A DNA stretch of 64,000 nucleotides from an uncultured Candidatus Saccharibacteria bacterium (GTDB taxonomy: Bacteria > Patescibacteriota > Minisyncoccia > Phycocordibacterales > UBA9973), in contig CAZQSY010000005.1 of assembly GCA_964596395.1 (NCBI GenBank), forward strand, positions 1,628 through 65,627, given 5' to 3'. Shown piece by piece: positions 13,136 through 62,830 of this stretch (positions are counted from its first letter, which is position 1; each line of letters opens with the position of its first letter). The notes under the pieces are model-generated. The model did no database searches, had not been told where the DNA came from, and saw nothing but the letters and a program-made list of their open reading frames with translations. Made by a program: the position numbers and the translations under genes.

Positions 13136-16114
13136 TTACGCCAAAATATTTATAAGTCTGTTTTTTACGTAGATTGCTCTCTTTATAGGATTGCCAGCCA
13201 TGTGTTTTGCTACATTTTCATCGGCCAGCGCCTTGTTTTTTACTGTTTCTTCCGAATCGCCGGCGTTTACCAATATTTCCGAACGTACCTTGCCGTTTAC
13301 CTGCACGGCGATTTTTACTTCTTCGTCTTTGAGCAATTTTTCTTCCCACTTCGGCCATGGAGATAAATGTATACTTTTCTTTTCGCCAAGTTCATGCCAA
13401 ATATATTCTGTCACATACGGCGCGAAGGGAGCGAGAATTTGCAGAAATTTTTTGAAATCCTCCGTTGAAATATAATCTGCTTTATCCATTTCTCCGGCTA
13501 GCACCATCATAGCCGAAACAGCCGTGTTAAAACGCATGTTTTCAATATCTTCCGAGACTTTTTTGATGGTTTTATGAAGAAGTTTTGAAAGAGGGGAAGG
13601 CAAGGAATTTTTAAGAGTCGTGGGTTCCCTGCCCTCATGACTCCGAGGGCGAAGGCTCAGAAAATTCTTTGCATTCCCCTCTTTGACCTTTTGCCCGATT
13701 CGCCACACTTTTTCTATAAACCTGCGCGGGCCGATGATGCTCTCGGTACTCCAAACCGCCGCTTCTTCGAACGGGCCCATAAACATTTCGTACACGCGTA
13801 GAGTGTCCGCGCCGTAAGTTTTGATGATGTCGTCAGGATTCACCACATTACCTAAAGATTTAGACATTTTTACTCCCCCTTCGCCTAAAATCATTCCGTG
13901 CGAAGTCCGCTTCGCGTACGGTTCCGGCGTCGGCACCAGCTTAAGGTCATACAAAAACTTGTGCCAGAAACGCGAATACAGAAGGTGCAGTGTAGTATGT
14001 TCCATGCCTCCGTTGTACCAATCTACTCCGCCAGGACCCAACTTGGAAGTCCGACTTCCAAGTGACTTGCCAAGCCAATATTTTAAATTTTTCTTGCTTG
14101 CGAATTCTTTATTATTTTTCGGGTCGGTGTAGCGCAAATAATACCAGGAACTCCCGGCCCAGTTTGGCATTGTGTCTGTTTCTCTTTTAGCCGGGCCTTT
14201 GCACTTCGGGCATTTAGTGTTTACCCATTTTGAAATCGAAGCCAGTGGCGACTCGCCGGTATCTGTCGGCTTGTAGCTTTTCACTTCCGGCAATTTCACC
14301 GGCAAATCTTTTTCCGGCACAGGCACCCAGCCGGCATTCAACTTGGAAGTCCGACTTCCAAGCAAGTCCTTCTTCTGGCAATTTTCACAAAACACTAACG
14401 GTATCGGCTCGCCCCAATATCTCTGCCGCGAGAAAACCCAGTCGCGCAGTTTAAATTTGGTAACAATTTTGCCGTCCACAAAATCCGTTATTTTTTTCTT
14501 CGCTTCTTCGGAATTTAAGCCGTCAAACCTGCCGGAGTTTGCAAGAATACCTTCTCCCGCATAAATTTCTAAACCATTCTTAAAAGCCCGCCAATCTCTA
14601 AGCGCTGCTCCTTTTAAGACATTCTCTACCTCTTCCGGTAAAAGCCATTTGGGTTCATGTTTTTCTTTTTCTTCTTCCGATAACTCTATATGTTCACCAT
14701 TCTTCAATTCAAAATAAAGATGGTGAAAATGGGCAAAACGATTTTCTTTTTTCAGAACATGAAAAAACTTTTCGTGAGAACGATACAATTCTTTCACGAA
14801 CACAGGATTCAAGTACCCCGTTTCTTCTTTTATCTCTCTAATGGCCGACTTTACCGAGTCTTCCCCTTCTTCAATTCCCCCGGTTATGAAAGTTATCCAT
14901 CCTCCCTTCTTCCAAAACAAAATTAAATATTTATCAAGAGCCCAATGTTTGACAATCGCGTGCGTTGCATTCCTCTCTATAAACTGAAGCCCCTCCTTCG
15001 GCTTATCTTCTTCGCTGATAAAAATCGGTTCAATGACATTCTTGATTGGCAAATTGTATTTTTTCGCAAACTCGTTATCCCGTTCGTCGTGCGCCGGCAC
15101 AGCCATGATGGCGCCGGTGCCATATTCGGGTAATACATAATCCGCGATAAAAATCGGAATCTCCTCATTGTTTGCCGGATTTACCGCCTTTATTCCTTTG
15201 AGTTCAACGCCGGTTTTTTCTTTGCTCTCGGCTGTACGTTCCATTTCTGTTTTCGTTTTGTTCGCCAGGATGTACTGCCACACCTCGCTCCAGTTGGAAA
15301 TATTATGCCGGAGTTTTTGCACCACCTCGTGCTCGGGCGCCAGCACCAGATAAGTCGCGCCGAAAAGGGTATCCGCGCGAGTAGTGAAAACCTCTATGTC
15401 AAAGGGCACCTTTGACACTTTAAATTTAATCAACACGCCTTCAGACTTTCCTATCCAGTTCCTCTGCTGAATTTTTACCCGCTCCGGATAATCCACCAAA
15501 TCCAAATCCTTATCGAGCCGGTCGGCGTACTTGGTAATCGCGAGCATCCATTGCTCTTTTTCCCTTTTTTCCGTTTGGCTGCCGCAGCGTTCACAGACAC
15601 CCCCAACCGCTTCTTCGTTGGCAAGCCCGATTTTACATTTCGGGCACCAATTTATGTATGACTTCGCCTTGTACGCCAAACCTTTTTTGAAAAGCTGTAA
15701 AAATATCCACTGCGTCCACTTGTAATATTTCGGGTCAGTAGTGTTTATCTCGCGGGGCCAGTCAAAAGAAAAACCAAGTGATTTGAGCTGCCGGCGAAAA
15801 GTATCCGTATTTTTCTTTGTTACCAGCGCCGGCTTCTCCCCCGTTTTTATTGCGTAATTTTCAGTAGGCAGACCAAAAGCGTCCCATCCGATGGGATACA
15901 AGACATTCTGGCCTTCCATTCGCCTTTTTCTGGCGATGATATCCATCGCCGCGTAGCTCCGAATATGGCCGGTATGCAACCCGGCGCCCGAAGGATACGG
16001 AAATTCTACCAGCGGGTAAAACTTTTTCCCCTTATCTGTCGCTCGATAGATTTTTTTCTTTTCCCATTCCTTCCAAACTTTCGGCTCAATTTTTTGGTGG
16101 TCGTAATTTTTCAT
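13136..16114 (-). CDS. leuS: Leucyl-tRNA synthetase carrying an internal NUDIX domain and three small in-frame repeat-element insertions
   Basis: 992 aa. HIGH-type motif PYPSGAGLHTGH, CP1 editing domain TTRADTLFGATY, KMSKS (VKMSKSLGNVV). Extra segments: Nudix box GGIEEGEDSVKSAIREIKEETGY; two LGSRTSKL octapeptides encoded by a 23-bp palindrome; a ~24-aa segment KNFLSLRPRSHEGREPTTLKNSLP encoded by a 70-bp repeat. Confidence 0.95.
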   Translation of the reverse strand: MKNYDHQKIEPKVWKEWEKKKIYRATDKGKKFYPLVEFPYPSGAGLHTGHIRSYAAMDIIARKRRMEGQNVLYPIGWDAFGLPTENYAIKTGEKPALVTKKNTDTFRRQLKSLGFSFDWPREINTTDPKYYKWTQWIFLQLFKKGLAYKAKSYINWCPKCKIGLANEEAVGGVCERCGSQTEKREKEQWMLAITKYADRLDKDLDLVDYPERVKIQQRNWIGKSEGVLIKFKVSKVPFDIEVFTTRADTLFGATYLVLAPEHEVVQKLRHNISNWSEVWQYILANKTKTEMERTAESKEKTGVELKGIKAVNPANNEEIPIFIADYVLPEYGTGAIMAVPAHDERDNEFAKKYNLPIKNVIEPIFISEEDKPKEGLQFIERNATHAIVKHWALDKYLILFWKKGGWITFITGGIEEGEDSVKSAIREIKEETGYLNPVFVKELYRSHEKFFHVLKKENRFAHFHHLYFELKNGEHIELSEEEKEKHEPKWLLPEEVENVLKGAALRDWRAFKNGLEIYAGEGILANSGRFDGLNSEEAKKKITDFVDGKIVTKFKLRDWVFSRQRYWGEPIPLVFCENCQKKDLLGSRTSKLNAGWVPVPEKDLPVKLPEVKSYKPTDTGESPLASISKWVNTKCPKCKGPAKRETDTMPNWAGSSWYYLRYTDPKNNKEFASKKNLKYWLGKSLGSRTSKLGPGGVDWYNGGMEHTTLHLLYSRFWHKFLYDLKLVPTPEPYAKRTSHGMILGEGGVKMSKSLGNVVNPDDIIKTYGADTLRVYEMFMGPFEEAAVWSTESIIGPRRFIEKVWRIGQKVKEGNAKNFLSLRPRSHEGREPTTLKNSLPSPLSKLLHKTIKKVSEDIENMRFNTAVSAMMVLAGEMDKADYISTEDFKKFLQILAPFAPYVTEYIWHELGEKKSIHLSPWPKWEEKLLKDEEVKIAVQVNGKVRSEILVNAGDSEETVKNKALADENVAKHMAGNPIKRAIYVKNRLINILA
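13607..13673. repeat. Family-2 MITE-like element (~70 bp), copy 1, in-frame inside leuS
   Basis: ggaatttttaagagtcgtgggttccctgccctcatgactccgagggcgaaggctcagaaaattcttt. About 80% identical to 18100-18169. AGAATTTT-type terminal inverted repeats and a GC-rich core hairpin (gccctc...gagggc). Confidence 0.6.
14041..14063. repeat. REP-like 23-bp perfect palindrome (copy A), in-frame inside leuS
   Basis: ACTTGGAAGTCCGACTTCCAAGT; encodes LGSRTSKL on the leuS strand just before the conserved VDWY.GG.EH..LHLLY block. Confidence 0.8.
14341..14363. repeat. REP-like palindrome (copy B, 22/23), in-frame inside leuS
   Basis: ACTTGGAAGTCCGACTTCCAAGc, exactly 300 bp from copy A. Encodes a second LGSRTSKL just before the conserved VPVPEKDLPV block. 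Confidence 0.8.
14555..15025 (-). other. NUDIX hydrolase domain (~155 aa) inserted in LeuRS between the editing domain and the ZN/leucyl-specific region
   Basis: Nudix box G-x5-E-x7-REUxEExGU satisfied exactly by GGIEEGEDSVKSAIREIKEETGY (nt 14813-14881). Flanking residues NLPIKNVIEP and GILANSGRFDGL match contiguous E. coli LeuRS positions. Confidence 0.7.
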
Positions 16115-17213: not shown

Positions 17214-17585
17214 ATGGACAAGAAGTTTGACGATTTTTCTAAAAAAATAACAAGATGGATAGGGTCCCCTTCTTCTCTGATAATGCACTCTCTGTTTTTC
17301 GCGGGAATTTTTTTCCTGAAAATATTCGGGGTATCTTCCGACGAAATTCTCTTGATCCTCACCACGATTGTATCGCTCGAAGCGATTTACTTGTCGATTT
17401 TCATACAAATGACCGTAAACAGGCACACCAAAGAGCTCAAAGAGGTCTCTAAAGATGTTGAAGAAATCCAGGAAAGCGTGAGTGAAATAGAAGAAAGCGT
17501 GGAAGAAATTGAAGAAGATGTCGGGGACATTGTGGAAGATATCGAAGACGGAGACAAAACAAGAATCATCGAGAGCTCCAAATAG
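17214..17585 (+). CDS. DUF1003-family small membrane protein
   Basis: 123 aa. Two TM helices with ILTTIVSLEAIYLSIFIQMTVNRHTKE matching the DUF1003 core, followed by an acidic coiled-coil tail. Confidence 0.5.
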   Translation: MDKKFDDFSKKITRWIGSPSSLIMHSLFFAGIFFLKIFGVSSDEILLILTTIVSLEAIYLSIFIQMTVNRHTKELKEVSKDVEEIQESVSEIEESVEEIEEDVGDIVEDIEDGDKTRIIESSK

Positions 17586-18567
17586 CGGTATTGGCCAGCG
17601 GGACAAAACGACTGTTTGATTTTTCAAAAATACACAACTCGCCTGATTCGGTTTTACCGCCGAGTTCCCGCATCGCGTCTTCCAGCGCGTATCCTAAGGC
17701 GAGCGAAGAAGAATCGGTAGCGTAAGAAGTAAGTATTACAAAAAGAGGATTGTCGCTCAAGACTTTTCTAGCATACGCGAGGAGTTTCGGTAAATCTTTT
17801 TCTATCTTCCACACTTCTCCCTTCGGCCCGCGGCCGAATTTCGGCGGGTCCATCATCACGCATTCATACCTGTTGCCGCGCTTCACTTCTCTTTCCAAAA
17901 ATTTCAAAGCGTCGTCCAAAATAATGCGCATCGGCATTCCCCCAAGCCCGGAAATTTTTTGGTTCTCCTTTACCCATTCCAGTATCTGCTTTGAAGCATC
18001 CACATGCGTGACCTCCGCCCCAGCCCGCAGAGCAAACAAACTCGCCACTCCGGTGTAGCCGAACAAATTCAAGAATTTAATCTTGGGTTGCCTCGGGGAA
18101 GAATTTTTAAGAAACGTGTGGGTTCCCTGTCCTTTTGTCTCCGAGGGCGCAGTTTCAAGAAAATTCTTTCCCGAGGCAATCCCTTTTATTTTTTCTTCTA
18201 TAAAATCCCAATGGCTGGCCTGCTCGGGGAAAAAACCCAAGTGGCGAAAGGGCGTGGGGGAAGCGAAAAATTTTGTGCCCTTGTAATTCATTTCCCATTT
18301 TTTGAGCAAGGACTCCCCTTGCTCATTTTTACTCCTCATTTCCCAGCCACCTCTCGCACCATCCTTCCCCGCCAAAAATTTCCCATCCGCCTCTGCCCAT
18401 TCTTTTACAAAAGTTTTCTGCCATAGAGCGCTTTCATACGGCCGCGCGAAAGTATACGGCCCAAATCTCTCGAGCTTCTCCCCTCCGCCGGTATCTAACA
18501 ATTCATAATCCCGCCAGTCATCGGCGCAGAAAATTTTAATTTCTTTTTTCATTCTAATATTATGCAT
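17566..18567 (-). CDS. Class I SAM-dependent rRNA methyltransferase, RlmI/YccW-like (PF10672), with in-frame 70-bp element insertion
   Basis: LNLFGYTGVASL (motif I), DASK, MDPPKFG (RlmI DPPKF motif). Extra ~25 aa KNFLETAPSETKGQGTHTFLKNSSP just before motif I. The start is probably the internal ATG giving MKKEIKIF (18552). Confidence 0.7.
   Translation of the reverse strand: MHNIRMKKEIKIFCADDWRDYELLDTGGGEKLERFGPYTFARPYESALWQKTFVKEWAEADGKFLAGKDGARGGWEMRSKNEQGESLLKKWEMNYKGTKFFASPTPFRHLGFFPEQASHWDFIEEKIKGIASGKNFLETAPSETKGQGTHTFLKNSSPRQPKIKFLNLFGYTGVASLFALRAGAEVTHVDASKQILEWVKENQKISGLGGMPMRIILDDALKFLEREVKRGNRYECVMMDPPKFGRGPKGEVWKIEKDLPKLLAYARKVLSDNPLFVILTSYATDSSSLALGYALEDAMRELGGKTESGELCIFEKSNSRFVPLANTAIWSSR
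18100..18169. repeat. Family-2 MITE-like element (~70 bp), copy 2, in-frame inside the RlmI-like methyltransferase gene
   Basis: agaatttttaagaaacgtgtgggttccctgtccttttgtctccgagggcgcagtttcaagaaaattcttt aligns with 13607-13673. Confidence 0.6.
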
Positions 18568-24651: not shown

Positions 24652-24674
24652 ACTTGGAAGTCCGACTTCCAAGT
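24652..24674. repeat. REP-like 23-bp palindrome (copy C), left boundary of the RAYT/SDR insertion; overlaps the putative RAYT promoter
   Basis: ACTTGGAAGTCCGACTTCCAAGT, 31 bp upstream of the tktC start. Its TTGGAA (24654-24659) lies 17 bp upstream of TGgTATAAT (24674-24682). Confidence 0.8.
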
Positions 24675-24682
24675 GGTATAAT

Positions 24683-25315
24683 TTGGCTATGAGGAAACAT
24701 AAATTCGTGGAGGGAGAATACTACCACATATATAACCGTGGAACAGAAAAAAGAAAAATAATCCTAGACGAATACGACCTAGACCGTTTTCTAGAAAGCA
24801 TGAAAGAGTTCAACACATTAGAACCTATAGGAAGTATTTACGAACAATCTTTCATAAAAAAGGAACTTGGAAGTCCGACTTCCAAGTCCAAACTGGTATC
24901 AATAATATCCTACTGCATAAACCCAAACCATTTTCATATGCTGATTACTCCCCTAGTAGAAAAGGGGATAGAAAAGTTTATGCAAAGAATTGGTGGTTAT
25001 ACTAAATATTTTAACGAAAAATATAAAAGAAACGGGGTTCTGTTTCAAGGTAAATTTAAATCAAAACATGTCTATACAGATAATAGATATTTGCTTCACT
25101 TAAGCGCTTACATAAACATGAACAACCGCAACCGACTTGGAAGTCCGACTTCCAAGTTGAGTAAATCGAGCTTGGAAGAATACACTAAAGGCGAAAAGGG
25201 TATCTGTAACATGGATATAGTCTTGGGTCAGTTTGAAAACGGAAAAGAGTATCTAAGGTTTTCTTTGGAATCCTGGCAAGATACGCAGGAAAGAAAAAAA
25301 GCTCTTGAAATGTAA
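24683..25315 (+). CDS. REP-associated tyrosine transposase (RAYT; IS200/IS605-like HUH-Y1), carrying two in-frame REP copies
   Basis: YYHIYNRG (cf. RAYT YHVTQRG), HUH motif NPNHFHMLITP (cf. SNHVHLLLTP), GGYTKYFNEKYKRNGVLFQGKFKSKHVYTDNRYLLHLSAYIN (cf. YTRYINRRYGRTGHLWQGRFKS...EYLLACSRYIELNP). The likely true start is the ATG at 24689. Confidence 0.75.
   Translation: MAMRKHKFVEGEYYHIYNRGTEKRKIILDEYDLDRFLESMKEFNTLEPIGSIYEQSFIKKELGSPTSKSKLVSIISYCINPNHFHMLITPLVEKGIEKFMQRIGGYTKYFNEKYKRNGVLFQGKFKSKHVYTDNRYLLHLSAYINMNNRNRLGSPTSKLSKSSLEEYTKGEKGICNMDIVLGQFENGKEYLRFSLESWQDTQERKKALEM
24865..24887. repeat. REP-like palindrome (copy D), in-frame inside the RAYT gene
   Basis: ACTTGGAAGTCCGACTTCCAAGT encoding ELGSPTSK. 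Confidence 0.8.
25135..25157. repeat. REP-like palindrome (copy E), in-frame inside the RAYT gene
   Basis: ACTTGGAAGTCCGACTTCCAAGT encoding RLGSPTSKL, near the RAYT C-terminus. Confidence 0.8.
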
Positions 25316-25339: not shown

Positions 25340-26080
25340 TTAGGTATGATATCCCTCCTGTATCTTCCGACCTTTTTTCAATACAAATACTTTACCGGTA
25401 ACCGCTTTCTTGCTTATACACAAACGTATGACAAACTTCGCTATTGCCTCGGGTGCAACCGTGTCACCAAGGTACTGTGGAAAATATTTTTTGTAGGCTT
25501 CAGTTGCAGTGTCAGAAGGAGAAATACAATTCACGCTTATTTTTTTATTTTTGAGTTCTTCCGCTAATCCAACTGTTAAATCTTCAATCCCTCTCTTTGA
25601 GACAAAATAAGGCAACCAACCCTTAGCACCGTTTTCAAATGTACCGGATACATTTAAAATTTTTGACCCTACTGGCATTACAGGAATGAAAGCATGAGCC
25701 AGAAGTGTAGGAGCGATCAATCCGACACAATACGTGTCAACTATGACTTGAGGATTAAAAGTTTCAAAATCTTTATTGGCATATACTTCATTTGCACCAT
25801 GCCAAATACCCGCGACATTAATTAAAAAACTAACATCTTTGTTTAATTTTTTAATCTTTTTAATGGTTTTATTAATTGAATCTACTCTGCTTAAATCTGT
25901 AACAAAATGTACACTTTTTCCGCCAATATTCTTTATCAATTTATTAGTTTCCACCAATTTTTTCTTTGTTCGAGCGATAAGAATAACCTCGATCCCCTCT
26001 TTTGCCATGGCAACAGAAACAGCCTTGCCAATTCCTGTACTGGCACCTGTAATAATCGCTAACTTATTTTTAAATTTCAT
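25340..26080 (-). CDS. Short-chain dehydrogenase/reductase (SDR)
   Basis: MKFKNKLAIITGASTGIGKA (TGxxxGxG), NVAG, catalytic Y..K (YFVSK). The ORF-track N-terminal extension merely reads through REP copy F; the true start is the ATG at 26080. Confidence 0.8.
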   Translation of the reverse strand: MKFKNKLAIITGASTGIGKAVSVAMAKEGIEVILIARTKKKLVETNKLIKNIGGKSVHFVTDLSRVDSINKTIKKIKKLNKDVSFLINVAGIWHGANEVYANKDFETFNPQVIVDTYCVGLIAPTLLAHAFIPVMPVGSKILNVSGTFENGAKGWLPYFVSKRGIEDLTVGLAEELKNKKISVNCISPSDTATEAYKKYFPQYLGDTVAPEAIAKFVIRLCISKKAVTGKVFVLKKGRKIQEGYHT

Positions 26081-26090
26081 AAATCTAGTC

Positions 26091-26113
26091 ACTTGGAAGT
26101 CGGACTTCCAAGT
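26091..26113. repeat. REP-like palindrome (copy F, centre G = inverted orientation), right boundary of the RAYT/SDR insertion
   Basis: ACTTGGAAGTCGGACTTCCAAGT, 2 bp after the tktN stop and 10 bp before the SDR start. Confidence 0.8.
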
Positions 26114-26114
26114 A

Positions 26115-26975
26115 CTATTGATGCTCGCTTTTAATTTTGCCGCCCAAAGTGCGGAGCTCGGCGAGCGCCATTTCGGCTTCTTCTTTCGAAGGCGGTTTGC
26201 CGTGCCACTTGTAATCCCTTTCAAATTCTTTCACGCCTCTGCCCGGAATCGTATGCGCGATAATTACAGTCGGCTTTTCTTCTACAGATTGCGCTTCACT
26301 TACTGCTTGATTCAAAGCCATAAAATCATGCCCTGAAACTTCTATCACGTGCCAGTTAAAACTTTTCCATTTGTCCGCCAGCGGCTCAAGCGGCATGATG
26401 TTTTCGGTAAAGCCGTCTATCTGAATGTTGTTTCTGTCAACAACCGCGATTAAATTTCTCAACTTATTTTTCCCGGCAAACATAATCGCTTCCCAGGAAT
26501 TCCCTTCATCAAGCTCACCGTCAGACATGAAGCAATACACGAATCTGTCTCTGTCTTTGCCGTTCATTTTATCCGCCAAAGCCATGCCGGATGCCTGCGC
26601 GAGGCCCGAGCCGAGCGGCCCCGAAGAATTCTCGAGCCAGGGCATAAATTCCCGATGCGGGTGGCCCTGCAGGCGGCTGCCGAACTTGCGCAAAGTTGAA
26701 AGCTCTTCAAGGGGAAAATACCCTGCGTGCGCCATAGTCGCGTACAAAACTGGCGCTATGTGCCCGTTTGAGAGCACAAATCTGTCCCGCTCCTCCCAGG
26801 AAGGATTCTTCGGGTCATGTTTTAAGACGTGAAAATAAAAAAGGGCGAAAATATCGGCCATCCCGAGCGGCCCGGCCGTGTGCCCGCTCCCCGCTTCAAG
26901 GAGCATTTCAATTATGCTCTTTCTGATTTCGTTTGCTTTCTCCTCCAGAAATTTAATTTTCTCATCGGTCAACAT
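26115..26975 (-). CDS. tktN: Transketolase, N-terminal subunit (TPP-binding)
   Basis: 286 aa. SGHTAGPLGMADIFALFYFHVL, GHIAPVLYA, GPLGSGLAQASGMA, DGELDEGNSWEA. Confidence 0.9.
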   Translation of the reverse strand: MLTDEKIKFLEEKANEIRKSIIEMLLEAGSGHTAGPLGMADIFALFYFHVLKHDPKNPSWEERDRFVLSNGHIAPVLYATMAHAGYFPLEELSTLRKFGSRLQGHPHREFMPWLENSSGPLGSGLAQASGMALADKMNGKDRDRFVYCFMSDGELDEGNSWEAIMFAGKNKLRNLIAVVDRNNIQIDGFTENIMPLEPLADKWKSFNWHVIEVSGHDFMALNQAVSEAQSVEEKPTVIIAHTIPGRGVKEFERDYKWHGKPPSKEEAEMALAELRTLGGKIKSEHQ

Positions 26976-62410: not shown

Positions 62411-62830
62411 CTATATGAAAGCTTTAGTTTTTCGAATCGAGTCTAAAATACCTTCATGGGTAATTATCCTTTCCGCTTCTTCTGGTGTAGCCCACTTATA
62501 ATCAATCTGTTCGTTTTTATCTAGAACTATATCCCCAGAAACATATCTGCAAATAAAGCTCACCCCTAGATGTTCTGCTCTTTCTTTCCCCCTATAAAAA
62601 TGGAAAGTGTTGAAGGGCTGAATTATTTCAATTTCAAGTCCTACTTCTTCCTTTACTTCACGCTTCGCCGCATCCTCTAATGATTCATTTTGATTTACTC
62701 TGCCCGTTAAAATCTCCCATTCGCCAGGCAAGTGATCCCTTTCAAACGAGCGCTGGGTAATAAGAATTTTGCCATCTTTAATGATTACCGCCTCTATTGC
62801 TACATTAAAAGTTCCTGGTGGTTGCCACAT
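62411..62830 (-). CDS. NUDIX hydrolase
   Basis: Nudix box GRVNQNESLEDAAKREVKEEVGLEI. Confidence 0.8.
   Translation of the reverse strand: MWQPPGTFNVAIEAVIIKDGKILITQRSFERDHLPGEWEILTGRVNQNESLEDAAKREVKEEVGLEIEIIQPFNTFHFYRGKERAEHLGVSFICRYVSGDIVLDKNEQIDYKWATPEEAERIITHEGILDSIRKTKAFI

Follow-up and report, generated by a model that had tools for sequence, protein, structure and literature searches.

The leuS gene and its product

The stretch of DNA analysed here (64,000 nucleotides, hereafter the window; contig CAZQSY010000005.1 of assembly GCA_964596395.1, uncultured Candidatus Saccharibacteria bacterium) carries on its minus strand a gene for leucyl-tRNA synthetase (LeuRS), leuS, in which a complete Nudix hydrolase domain is embedded. 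The gene (13136-16114) encodes a polypeptide of 992 amino acids (aa). A first-pass annotation, made by a model from the sequence, had reported the embedded domain and raised the possibility that a frameshift might assign the region to a separate open reading frame (ORF); leuS proved to be a single uninterrupted ORF, a protein identical to its product is recorded in NCBI as well as in Logan, and the gene is reproduced by an independent contig from Logan. The 992-aa protein scored 933.6 bits against TIGR00396 (leuS_bact), above the equivalog cut-off of 548.4, and matched the Pfam models for tRNA-synt_1, the editing domain (PF13603) and the anticodon-binding domain. A full-length AlphaFold2 (AF2) model (mean predicted local distance difference test score (pLDDT) 83.6, predicted template modelling score (pTM) 0.75) matched bacterial LeuRS structures with TMt 0.78-0.83.

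Profiles and alignment divided the protein into three parts, all encoded on the minus strand. Residues 1-363 (15026-16114) comprise the first half of the Rossmann fold, ZN1 and the first three quarters of connective peptide 1 (CP1), including the Thr-rich motif TTRADT (aa 243-249) and HDERD (aa 342-346). Residues 364-521 (14552-15025) form the Nudix domain of 158 aa, at a position designated site A. Residues 522-992 (13136-14551) comprise the remainder of CP1 (GILANSGRFDG) and the second half of the core, followed by the anticodon-binding domain and the C-terminal domain. The HIGH motif is present as HTGH (aa 47-50, 15965-15976) and KMSKS is found at aa 749-753 (13856-13870). The CP1 editing-site residues T244, T245, R246, T249, D343 and D346 were invariant among 100 aligned relatives, and the Thr-rich and Asp motifs lined up with those of Thermus LeuRS in a pairwise alignment. 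Judged by these motifs, the CP1 editing site appears intact, and the gene appears to encode a complete, working bacterial LeuRS.

The leucine-specific domain is absent, Thermus residues 581-636 having no counterpart at the corresponding location (aa 741-753, 13856-13894). Many LeuRS without an insert (from the Candidate Phyla Radiation (CPR), Acidobacteria and Eubacteriales) likewise lack this domain; its loss is therefore considered unrelated to the Nudix insert, and the idea that the insert compensates for it was rejected. In addition, a hypervariable Pro/Ser/Arg-rich segment, SLRPRSHEGREPTTLKNSLPSPL (aa 820-842, 13589-13657), separates the catalytic core from the anticodon-binding domain. 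It was near-identical in some scattered relatives, others having unrelated sequence in its place, and AF2 modelled it with pLDDT <50.

Position, motif and predicted fold of the insert

The match to the editing-domain profile PF13603 was broken by the insert at profile position 143 of 185, and in the alignment with Thermus thermophilus LeuRS query residues 1-362 correspond to Thermus 1-363 and query residues from 517 onward to Thermus 376 onward. The insert therefore lies inside the CP1 editing domain, which in Thermus LeuRS spans residues 224-417, and there, by alignment, it takes the place of a 12-residue surface loop. It is tethered in that loop by two short linkers. The first-pass annotation had placed the domain after CP1; the flanking sequences that it quoted do occur, NLPIKNVIEP as aa 354-363 and GILANSGRFDGL as aa 522-533, but the split profile match and the alignment put the domain within CP1. 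The extent that it gave (14555-15025, about 155 aa) was correct at 15025, the start lying instead at 14552.

The Pfam NUDIX profile PF00293 matched aa 403-504 (E=3e-12; 47.1 bits, the gathering threshold being 21.1), so that the profile search proposed with the annotation bore out a complete Nudix domain in a continuous reading frame. The annotation had also described a textbook Nudix box with all catalytic Glu residues, and this description holds: the box GGIEEGEDSVKSAIREIKEETGY (aa 412-434, 14813-14881) fits the consensus GX5EX7REUXEEXGU at every position (G412, E418, R426, E427, I428, E430, E431, G433 and Y434). Beyond the box, F450/F451/H452 (an X-loop aromatic pair), K455, N458, R459, E482, H486 and W490 (14639-14764) are candidate family-specific pocket residues, shared by embedded and free-standing members of the family.

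AF2 modelled the isolated insert with pLDDT 95.7 and pTM 0.89, and within the full protein the insert reached pLDDT 90-96. Foldseek searches with the insert model gave a probability of 1.0 to Nudix structures and 497 matches in the PDB at E<=0.001, the top 50 of which were all Nudix-family entries. The insert is thus predicted by modelling to adopt the Nudix alpha/beta/alpha sandwich fold. An intein was considered and rejected: there was no Hint/intein family among the Pfam matches of the LeuRS protein, and the boundaries NVIEP|IFISE and YAGE|GILAN lack the Cys/Ser/Thr or His-Asn residues of splice junctions.

Conservation and distribution of the insert

Conservation was assessed in the 120 proteins closest to the window LeuRS in a collection of 5.8 billion proteins. 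A precomputed PF00293 match was recorded for 118 of the 120, and alignment revealed an insert of 150-170 aa at site A in 119. Within the Nudix box, G412, E427 and E431 were each kept in 119/120, E430 in 117/120, G433 in 116/120 and R426 in 96/120, and position 418 was Glu in 93 and Gln in 25. In a wider set of 219 site-A copies, 211 kept the ExxEE core. Divergence has been faster in the insert than in its host, with a median identity to the query of 40% compared with 73% for the rest of LeuRS. Synonymous sites were saturated in the comparison with the nearest relative genome, and proportions of nonsynonymous (pN) and synonymous (pS) differences were therefore used in place of dN/dS; pN was 0.155 for the insert as against 0.136 for the remainder of leuS, and pS was ~0.8 and saturated. 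These values and the conserved box indicate that the insert is under purifying selection.

The survey of related LeuRS that had been suggested with the annotation showed the insert to be a clade-wide trait of Patescibacteria LeuRS that is not private to the window gene. By name, with host taxonomy resting on the labels of metagenome-assembled genomes (MAGs), the hosts were Paceibacterota, Nomurabacteria, Minisyncoccia, Patescibacteria group, Saccharimonadales and Absconditicoccaceae, and among species-representative genomes a Nudix insert of 155-175 aa was found in 17 Patescibacteria LeuRS. LeuRS of Acidobacteria, Eubacteriales, Rickettsiales and other non-CPR lineages have only 0-25 residues at site A, in agreement with the annotator's view that a Nudix domain is foreign to the canonical LeuRS architecture. 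The same short length was found in many Saccharibacteria, one Campbellbacteria genome and other Patescibacteria LeuRS.

Proteins and loci are referred to below by the P- and L-numbers used in the analysis. The close relative P0109 (~74% identity to the query, read by list position; only P0012, at 77%, was clearly closer in the alignment of 100 relatives) has a LeuRS without the insert, which is therefore not essential for LeuRS function. Fission of the gene in this relative was rejected as an explanation, because no member of the insert's Nudix family lies within 10 kb of P0109 leuS. At another locus (L049, MAG 'bacterium isolate ELA588') the LeuRS carries a 124-aa insert at site A that did not match the Nudix profile.

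Other members of the Nudix family

A family profile was made from 62 inserts and 5 free homologues and searched against 1.84 billion representatives, yielding 7,438 matches in all and 176 clusters at E<=1e-30. The best 150 of the 7,438 matches were surveyed for their hosts and mapped onto LeuRS coordinates. Copies were found at four sites in LeuRS: site A, after query residue 363 (219 copies); site B1, at query residue ~208 just before CP1 (12 copies, often as a tandem pair); site B2, at query residue ~238 in the first CP1 hairpin (~10 copies); and site C, at query residue ~640 in the second zinc module (~5 copies). Some LeuRS carry two or three Nudix copies (P0131, P0132). The additional copies at B1, B2 and C were more often degenerate than those at site A, many being without a full Nudix box. 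In a nearest-neighbour analysis the B2 copies formed one group, the B1 copies resembled site-A copies of other LeuRS, and the site-C copies grouped with a distinct free-standing lineage (P0006, P0207), which points to several independent insertion or duplication events.

About 34 members of the family, of ~160 aa, are free-standing. One of them, P0002, is encoded on contig L063 within a same-strand cluster of small hydrolase genes that includes four Nudix genes and genes for Ham1, Ser_hydrolase, HAD, His_Phos_1, GDPD and 2'-5' RNA-ligase-like proteins; the enzyme types are the same set as the domains inserted in CPR LeuRS.

The family also occurs in a second, class II synthetase. P0259 is a prolyl-tRNA synthetase (ProRS) in which a domain of the insert's Nudix family follows the anticodon-binding domain and precedes the C-terminal one, and four close relatives from public metagenomes (P0281-P0284) have the same layout, giving five such ProRS in all. 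More than 100 other closest ProRS relatives have no Nudix domain, and those that are named belong to Nanoarchaeota or Woesearchaeota. Two further ProRS fragments, P0184 and P0211, were present among the family matches. All multi-domain hosts identified among the best 150 matches were thus aminoacyl-tRNA synthetases, either LeuRS (at four sites) or ProRS, the remaining matches being free-standing, tandem-Nudix or unassigned proteins. One Nudix family has been captured repeatedly by synthetases, independently at several sites of LeuRS and in archaeal-type ProRS.

Residues R381, W401, K455, N458, R459, E482, H486 and W490 and the catalytic Glu residues are kept in LeuRS-embedded, ProRS-embedded and free-standing members alike. 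Being conserved in every context, the pocket belongs to the Nudix family and is independent of LeuRS, and the sequence comparison suggests that the insert is an autonomous enzyme module.

Similarity to characterised Nudix enzymes

Matches to characterised enzymes were weak throughout. The best PDB sequence matches of the family profile were lupin Ap4A hydrolase (1f3y, E=6e-8), the decapping effector AvrM14 and NUDT12. Foldseek placed the insert among generic small Nudix enzymes, with template modelling (TM) scores of 0.6-0.7 and 17-23% identity. Its top 50 included diadenosine polyphosphate (ApnA) hydrolases from Aquifex, Thermus (Ndx1, an Ap6A hydrolase), human, C. elegans, Chlamydia (CT771), Plasmodium and M. 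tuberculosis (Rv2985), as well as MutT1, NudB, NudI, ADP-ribose pyrophosphatase and RppH. RppH/NudH models gave the most consistent NCBIfam matches, to 64 of 67 family members, with scores of ~20-35 bits where the cut-offs exceed 100; the window insert itself reached 22.8 bits against the RppH equivalog cut-off of 118 (NF001936/NF001938).

According to a passage of PMC5389931, a Tyr in the X-loop ~16-18 residues past the Nudix box is tied to ApnA activity (Dunn et al., 1999, as cited there). In the insert's family, position +17 after the box is aromatic throughout: of 218 site-A copies, 129 have Tyr there and 73 have Phe. On the whole, the family is an uncharacterised one. Among characterised enzymes the ApnA hydrolases and RppH come closest to it, though only weakly, and it cannot be assigned to either.

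Other Nudix genes were seen in the window and beside leuS elsewhere. A separate, free-standing gene of 139 aa (62411-62830, minus strand) has an intact box, GRVNQNESLEDAAKREVKEEVGL, and is distant from the insert, scoring 24 bits against the family profile. At nine loci labelled Saccharibacteria (L017, L022, L033, L042, L043, L055, L056, L057 and L058) a Nudix gene of 170-200 aa lies on the same strand ~0.7-1.5 kb downstream of leuS. By eye, its motif RWTIPKGH[IV]E[EP]GE resembles that of human NUDT2. A complementary distribution of the insert and this neighbouring gene was considered and rejected, since both occur together at L017 and the neighbouring gene, at ~30 bits, is of another Nudix family than the insert.

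Possible function of the insert

With its Nudix box and pocket residues apparently under purifying selection, the insert is most likely a catalytically active pyrophosphohydrolase, and we are confident, judging from the conserved sequence, that it is an active Nudix hydrolase module. Its role is harder to name. The reading that we favour, as plausible though somewhat short of probable, is that of a tethered, autonomous pyrophosphohydrolase which most plausibly clears Ap4A-type by-products of the synthetase. Synthetases make diadenosine tetraphosphate (Ap4A) and other dinucleoside tetraphosphates (Np4N) in a side reaction, the attack of ATP or other NTPs on the aminoacyl-adenylate bound to the enzyme. 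A self-folding Nudix domain that replaces a CP1 surface loop would act as a pyrophosphohydrolase tethered to the synthetase and hydrolyse a diffusible nucleoside-diphosphate-X compound, for which the dinucleoside polyphosphates Ap4A, diadenosine triphosphate (Ap3A) and Np4N would be the best candidates; the by-product would be cleaved back to usable nucleotides beside its place of synthesis. LeuRS (class I) and ProRS (class II) are unrelated hosts that have in common ATP, aminoacyl-adenylate and tRNA. Because the Ap4A side reaction is shared by both hosts and the insert shows a weak ApnA/RppH similarity, clearance or recycling of ApnA is the best single candidate. Degradation of Ap4A or Ap3A had been offered in the first-pass annotation and so keeps its place, though the similarity behind it is weak. 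That the substrate belongs to the ApnA class is, taken by itself, less likely than not.

Several observations weigh against clearance of synthetase by-products. The window's own copy carries Phe (aa 451) and not Tyr at +17. Characterised Nudix enzymes all resemble the insert weakly (E values of 1e-7 to 1e-9, TM scores of 0.6-0.7, NCBIfam scores of ~23 bits against >100), and MutT-like enzymes, NudB, NudI and ADP-ribose pyrophosphatases score nearly as high. L017 (Saccharimonadales) has both a LeuRS insert and a NUDT2-like gene near leuS, the other eight loci with that gene being insert-free. P0109, a close syntenic relative, has 33 unrelated residues at site A in place of the insert. The loops of relatives' LeuRS also hold Ham1, serine hydrolase, nucleotidyltransferase-like and DUF559 domains, and the free-standing P0002 is encoded in an island of house-cleaning hydrolase genes (four Nudix genes and genes for Ham1, Ser_hydrolase, HAD and His_Phos).

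The last three of these observations fit the alternative that survives best, in which LeuRS is a permissive scaffold and an active house-cleaning Nudix enzyme is parked in a tolerant loop of an essential, constitutively expressed protein, its chemistry unlinked to leucylation. The identical pocket residues of free and embedded copies, the faster evolution of the insert relative to its host and the uptake by the same leuS of two in-frame palindromic elements (see below) also agree with it. On the other hand, the multi-domain hosts identified among the best 150 family matches are all synthetases, and the site-A copy is kept near-universally across deep divergence, the other inserted domains being sporadic. 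We regard this alternative as somewhat unlikely, yet a serious contender.

A distinctly less likely alternative is that the insert is an RppH/NudC-like 5'-pyrophosphohydrolase or decapping enzyme that the synthetase brings to tRNA or to Np4N- or NAD-capped transcripts. RppH models are the most consistent NCBIfam matches (64/67 members, best E ~1e-10), AvrM14, NUDT12, Dcp2 and E. coli RppH are among the sequence and fold matches, and both host synthetases bind tRNA. The scores nevertheless fall far under the family cut-offs, free-standing members with the same pocket have no RNA-binding partner, and no basic RNA-binding extension is evident in the insert. Moreover, tRNAs processed by RNase P have 5' monophosphates.

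It is very unlikely that the Nudix fold serves here as a non-catalytic structural, tRNA-binding or regulatory ligand-sensing module. Passages of PMC5389931 describe non-enzymatic Nudix domains, and in site-A copies E418 is Gln in ~20% and R426 is replaced in ~20%; second copies at B1, B2 and C are often without a full Nudix box. However, E427, E430 and E431 are conserved in at least 97.5% of site-A copies and the box of the window copy is perfect. Since insert-free LeuRS often lack the leucine-specific domain too, the insert does not make good its loss, and the LeuRS of P0109 works without an insert.

Hydrolysis of non-cognate aminoacyl-adenylates before transfer, the other activity that had been put forward in the first-pass annotation, was disfavoured by the analysis and is extremely unlikely. 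It is suggested by proximity alone, the insert lying within the editing domain. The CP1 hydrolytic site appears intact, and the same family with the same pocket is found in free-standing proteins and in archaeal-type ProRS. An aminoacyl-AMP is a mixed carboxylic-phosphoric anhydride with one phosphate and contains no nucleoside-diphosphate-X, the type of compound that Nudix enzymes cleave. Nothing was found in favour of an artefact (frameshift, chimeric assembly or mis-joined ORF); the GC content does fall to 0.37-0.40 across the insert, compared with ~0.47-0.49 in its flanks. An artefact was rejected as having a negligible likelihood, given the continuous reading frame, the identical protein from independent sources and the same architecture in >200 orthologues from many assemblies.

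Other insertions in leuS, its relatives and neighbouring genes

Domains other than Nudix are inserted in the LeuRS of several relatives: a Ham1 ITPase domain in P0079 (aa 250-390), a serine hydrolase domain (PF06821) in P0080, P0112, L004 and L055, a nucleotidyltransferase-like domain in P0122, and a DUF559/MTES_1575 endonuclease domain in P0034, P0112, P0122 and L003. They lie mostly in the first CP1 hairpin (query ~238), with one in the second zinc module, and all are in frame. In the genome of P0109 a gene for an S-adenosylmethionine-dependent methyltransferase upstream of leuS (L066, 7436-8932, 498 aa) also contains a DUF559/MTES_1575 endonuclease domain, and its orthologue in the window (17566-18567, 333 aa) has no DUF559; here too an endonuclease domain has been inserted in frame into, or fused to, the product of a housekeeping gene.

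The window leuS contains a second kind of insertion, separate from the Nudix feature. A perfect palindrome of 21-23 nt, (A)CTTGGAAGTC[C/G]GACTTCCAAG(T), occurs in six copies in the window, none being expected by chance. Two of them lie in frame in leuS, both encoding LGSRTSKL: one, CTTGGAAGTCSGACTTCCAAG (21 nt), at 14342-14362 (aa 585-592) and the other at 14042-14062 (aa 685-692; AF2 pLDDT <50). Through these insertions the protein gains 14-15 aa that neither Thermus LeuRS nor the majority of close relatives have. The other copies are at 24653-24673, 24866-24886, 25136-25156 and 26092-26112. Two of them lie in frame inside an ORF (24683-25315, plus strand) for a 210-aa IS200-like Y1 transposase (PF01797, E=2e-8), one just upstream of it, and one ~0.8 kb downstream, inside the overlapping ORFs 25340-26224 and 25776-26336. 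Palindrome and transposase look like a repetitive extragenic palindromic (REP) element with a REP-associated tyrosine transposase (RAYT), the elements colonising coding regions in frame.

Implications

A full-text literature search found no paper that describes a Nudix domain within LeuRS, or within any CPR or DPANN synthetase, and a comprehensive review of the Nudix clan nowhere mentions tRNA. The sequences are already public and carry precomputed PF00293 matches; it is the architecture for which no description was found in the literature. What is surprising from a specialist's point of view is the position within the editing domain, the conservation on the scale of a phylum and the repeated, independent capture. 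The domain inventories of synthetases were thought to be essentially catalogued, and they are extended by a second catalytic domain within the editing domain that is kept over a large portion of the bacterial tree, by its re-invention at other LeuRS sites and by its presence in archaeal-type ProRS.

Clearance of by-products can be taken further. In an unlikely but more far-reaching version, the synthetases of ultra-small symbionts, CPR bacteria and DPANN-like archaea alike, would have captured one Nudix family repeatedly and independently to form a physically coupled make-and-destroy unit for Ap4A and Np4N, which act as alarmones and RNA-cap precursors; if true, this would be the first synthetase carrying its own hydrolase for a by-product or alarmone. 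A related, less conventional idea is that mobile enzyme cassettes, some of them with DUF559, may use the CP1 loops of CPR LeuRS as landing pads and insert there in frame, which, if true, would amount to an intein-free spread of genes inside essential proteins.

The insert offers an experimental handle on the old question of whether the Ap4A-type nucleotides made by synthetases are waste or signal, and on their disposal or recycling in cells with minimal genomes. CPR LeuRS tolerates and accumulates whole enzyme domains in its surface loops, a property of relevance to protein engineering and to the packaging of functions in reduced genomes. In addition, the insert may serve as a phylogenetic marker for Patescibacteria lineages.

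Comparison with known systems

Relative to canonical bacterial LeuRS (T. thermophilus 1h3n/2bte and E. coli 4aq7), the window protein shows 32-36% identity and a TM score of ~0.8, and the catalytic, zinc-binding, CP1 editing, anticodon-binding and C-terminal elements are all present. It differs in having a 158-aa enzyme domain where Thermus LeuRS has a 12-residue loop between residues 363 and 376, in the lack of a leucine-specific domain and in two additional 14-15-aa segments that stem from palindromic DNA elements.

With the ApnA hydrolases and RppH/NudH (1f3y; Aquifex aq_158, 3i7u; NUDT2, 4ijx; Ndx1, 1vc8; E. coli RppH, 6vcr) the insert shares the fold, a full Nudix box, a size of ~135-160 aa and an aromatic X-loop residue ~17 residues after the box. 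It differs from them in sequence (17-23% identity, with scores far under the curated family thresholds) and in its own conserved set of residues (R381, W401, K455, N458-R459, E482, H486 and W490). Furthermore, it sits inside a synthetase, whereas the enzymes compared are free.

Like inteins and homing-endonuclease insertions, the Nudix domain is a large in-frame insertion in a conserved housekeeping protein that is patchy among close relatives, and some relatives' LeuRS carry a DUF559 endonuclease domain in a neighbouring loop. In contrast to inteins, it appears to be kept as a functional enzyme and is predicted by modelling to fold within the mature protein. A further parallel is isoleucine-tRNA ligase with an N-acetyltransferase domain (NCBIfam NF040702), which was among the LeuRS-type NCBIfam matches of the 992-aa protein and likewise has a second, unrelated enzyme domain on a synthetase polypeptide; the Nudix domain differs from it in lying not at a terminus but within the editing domain and at several other internal sites.

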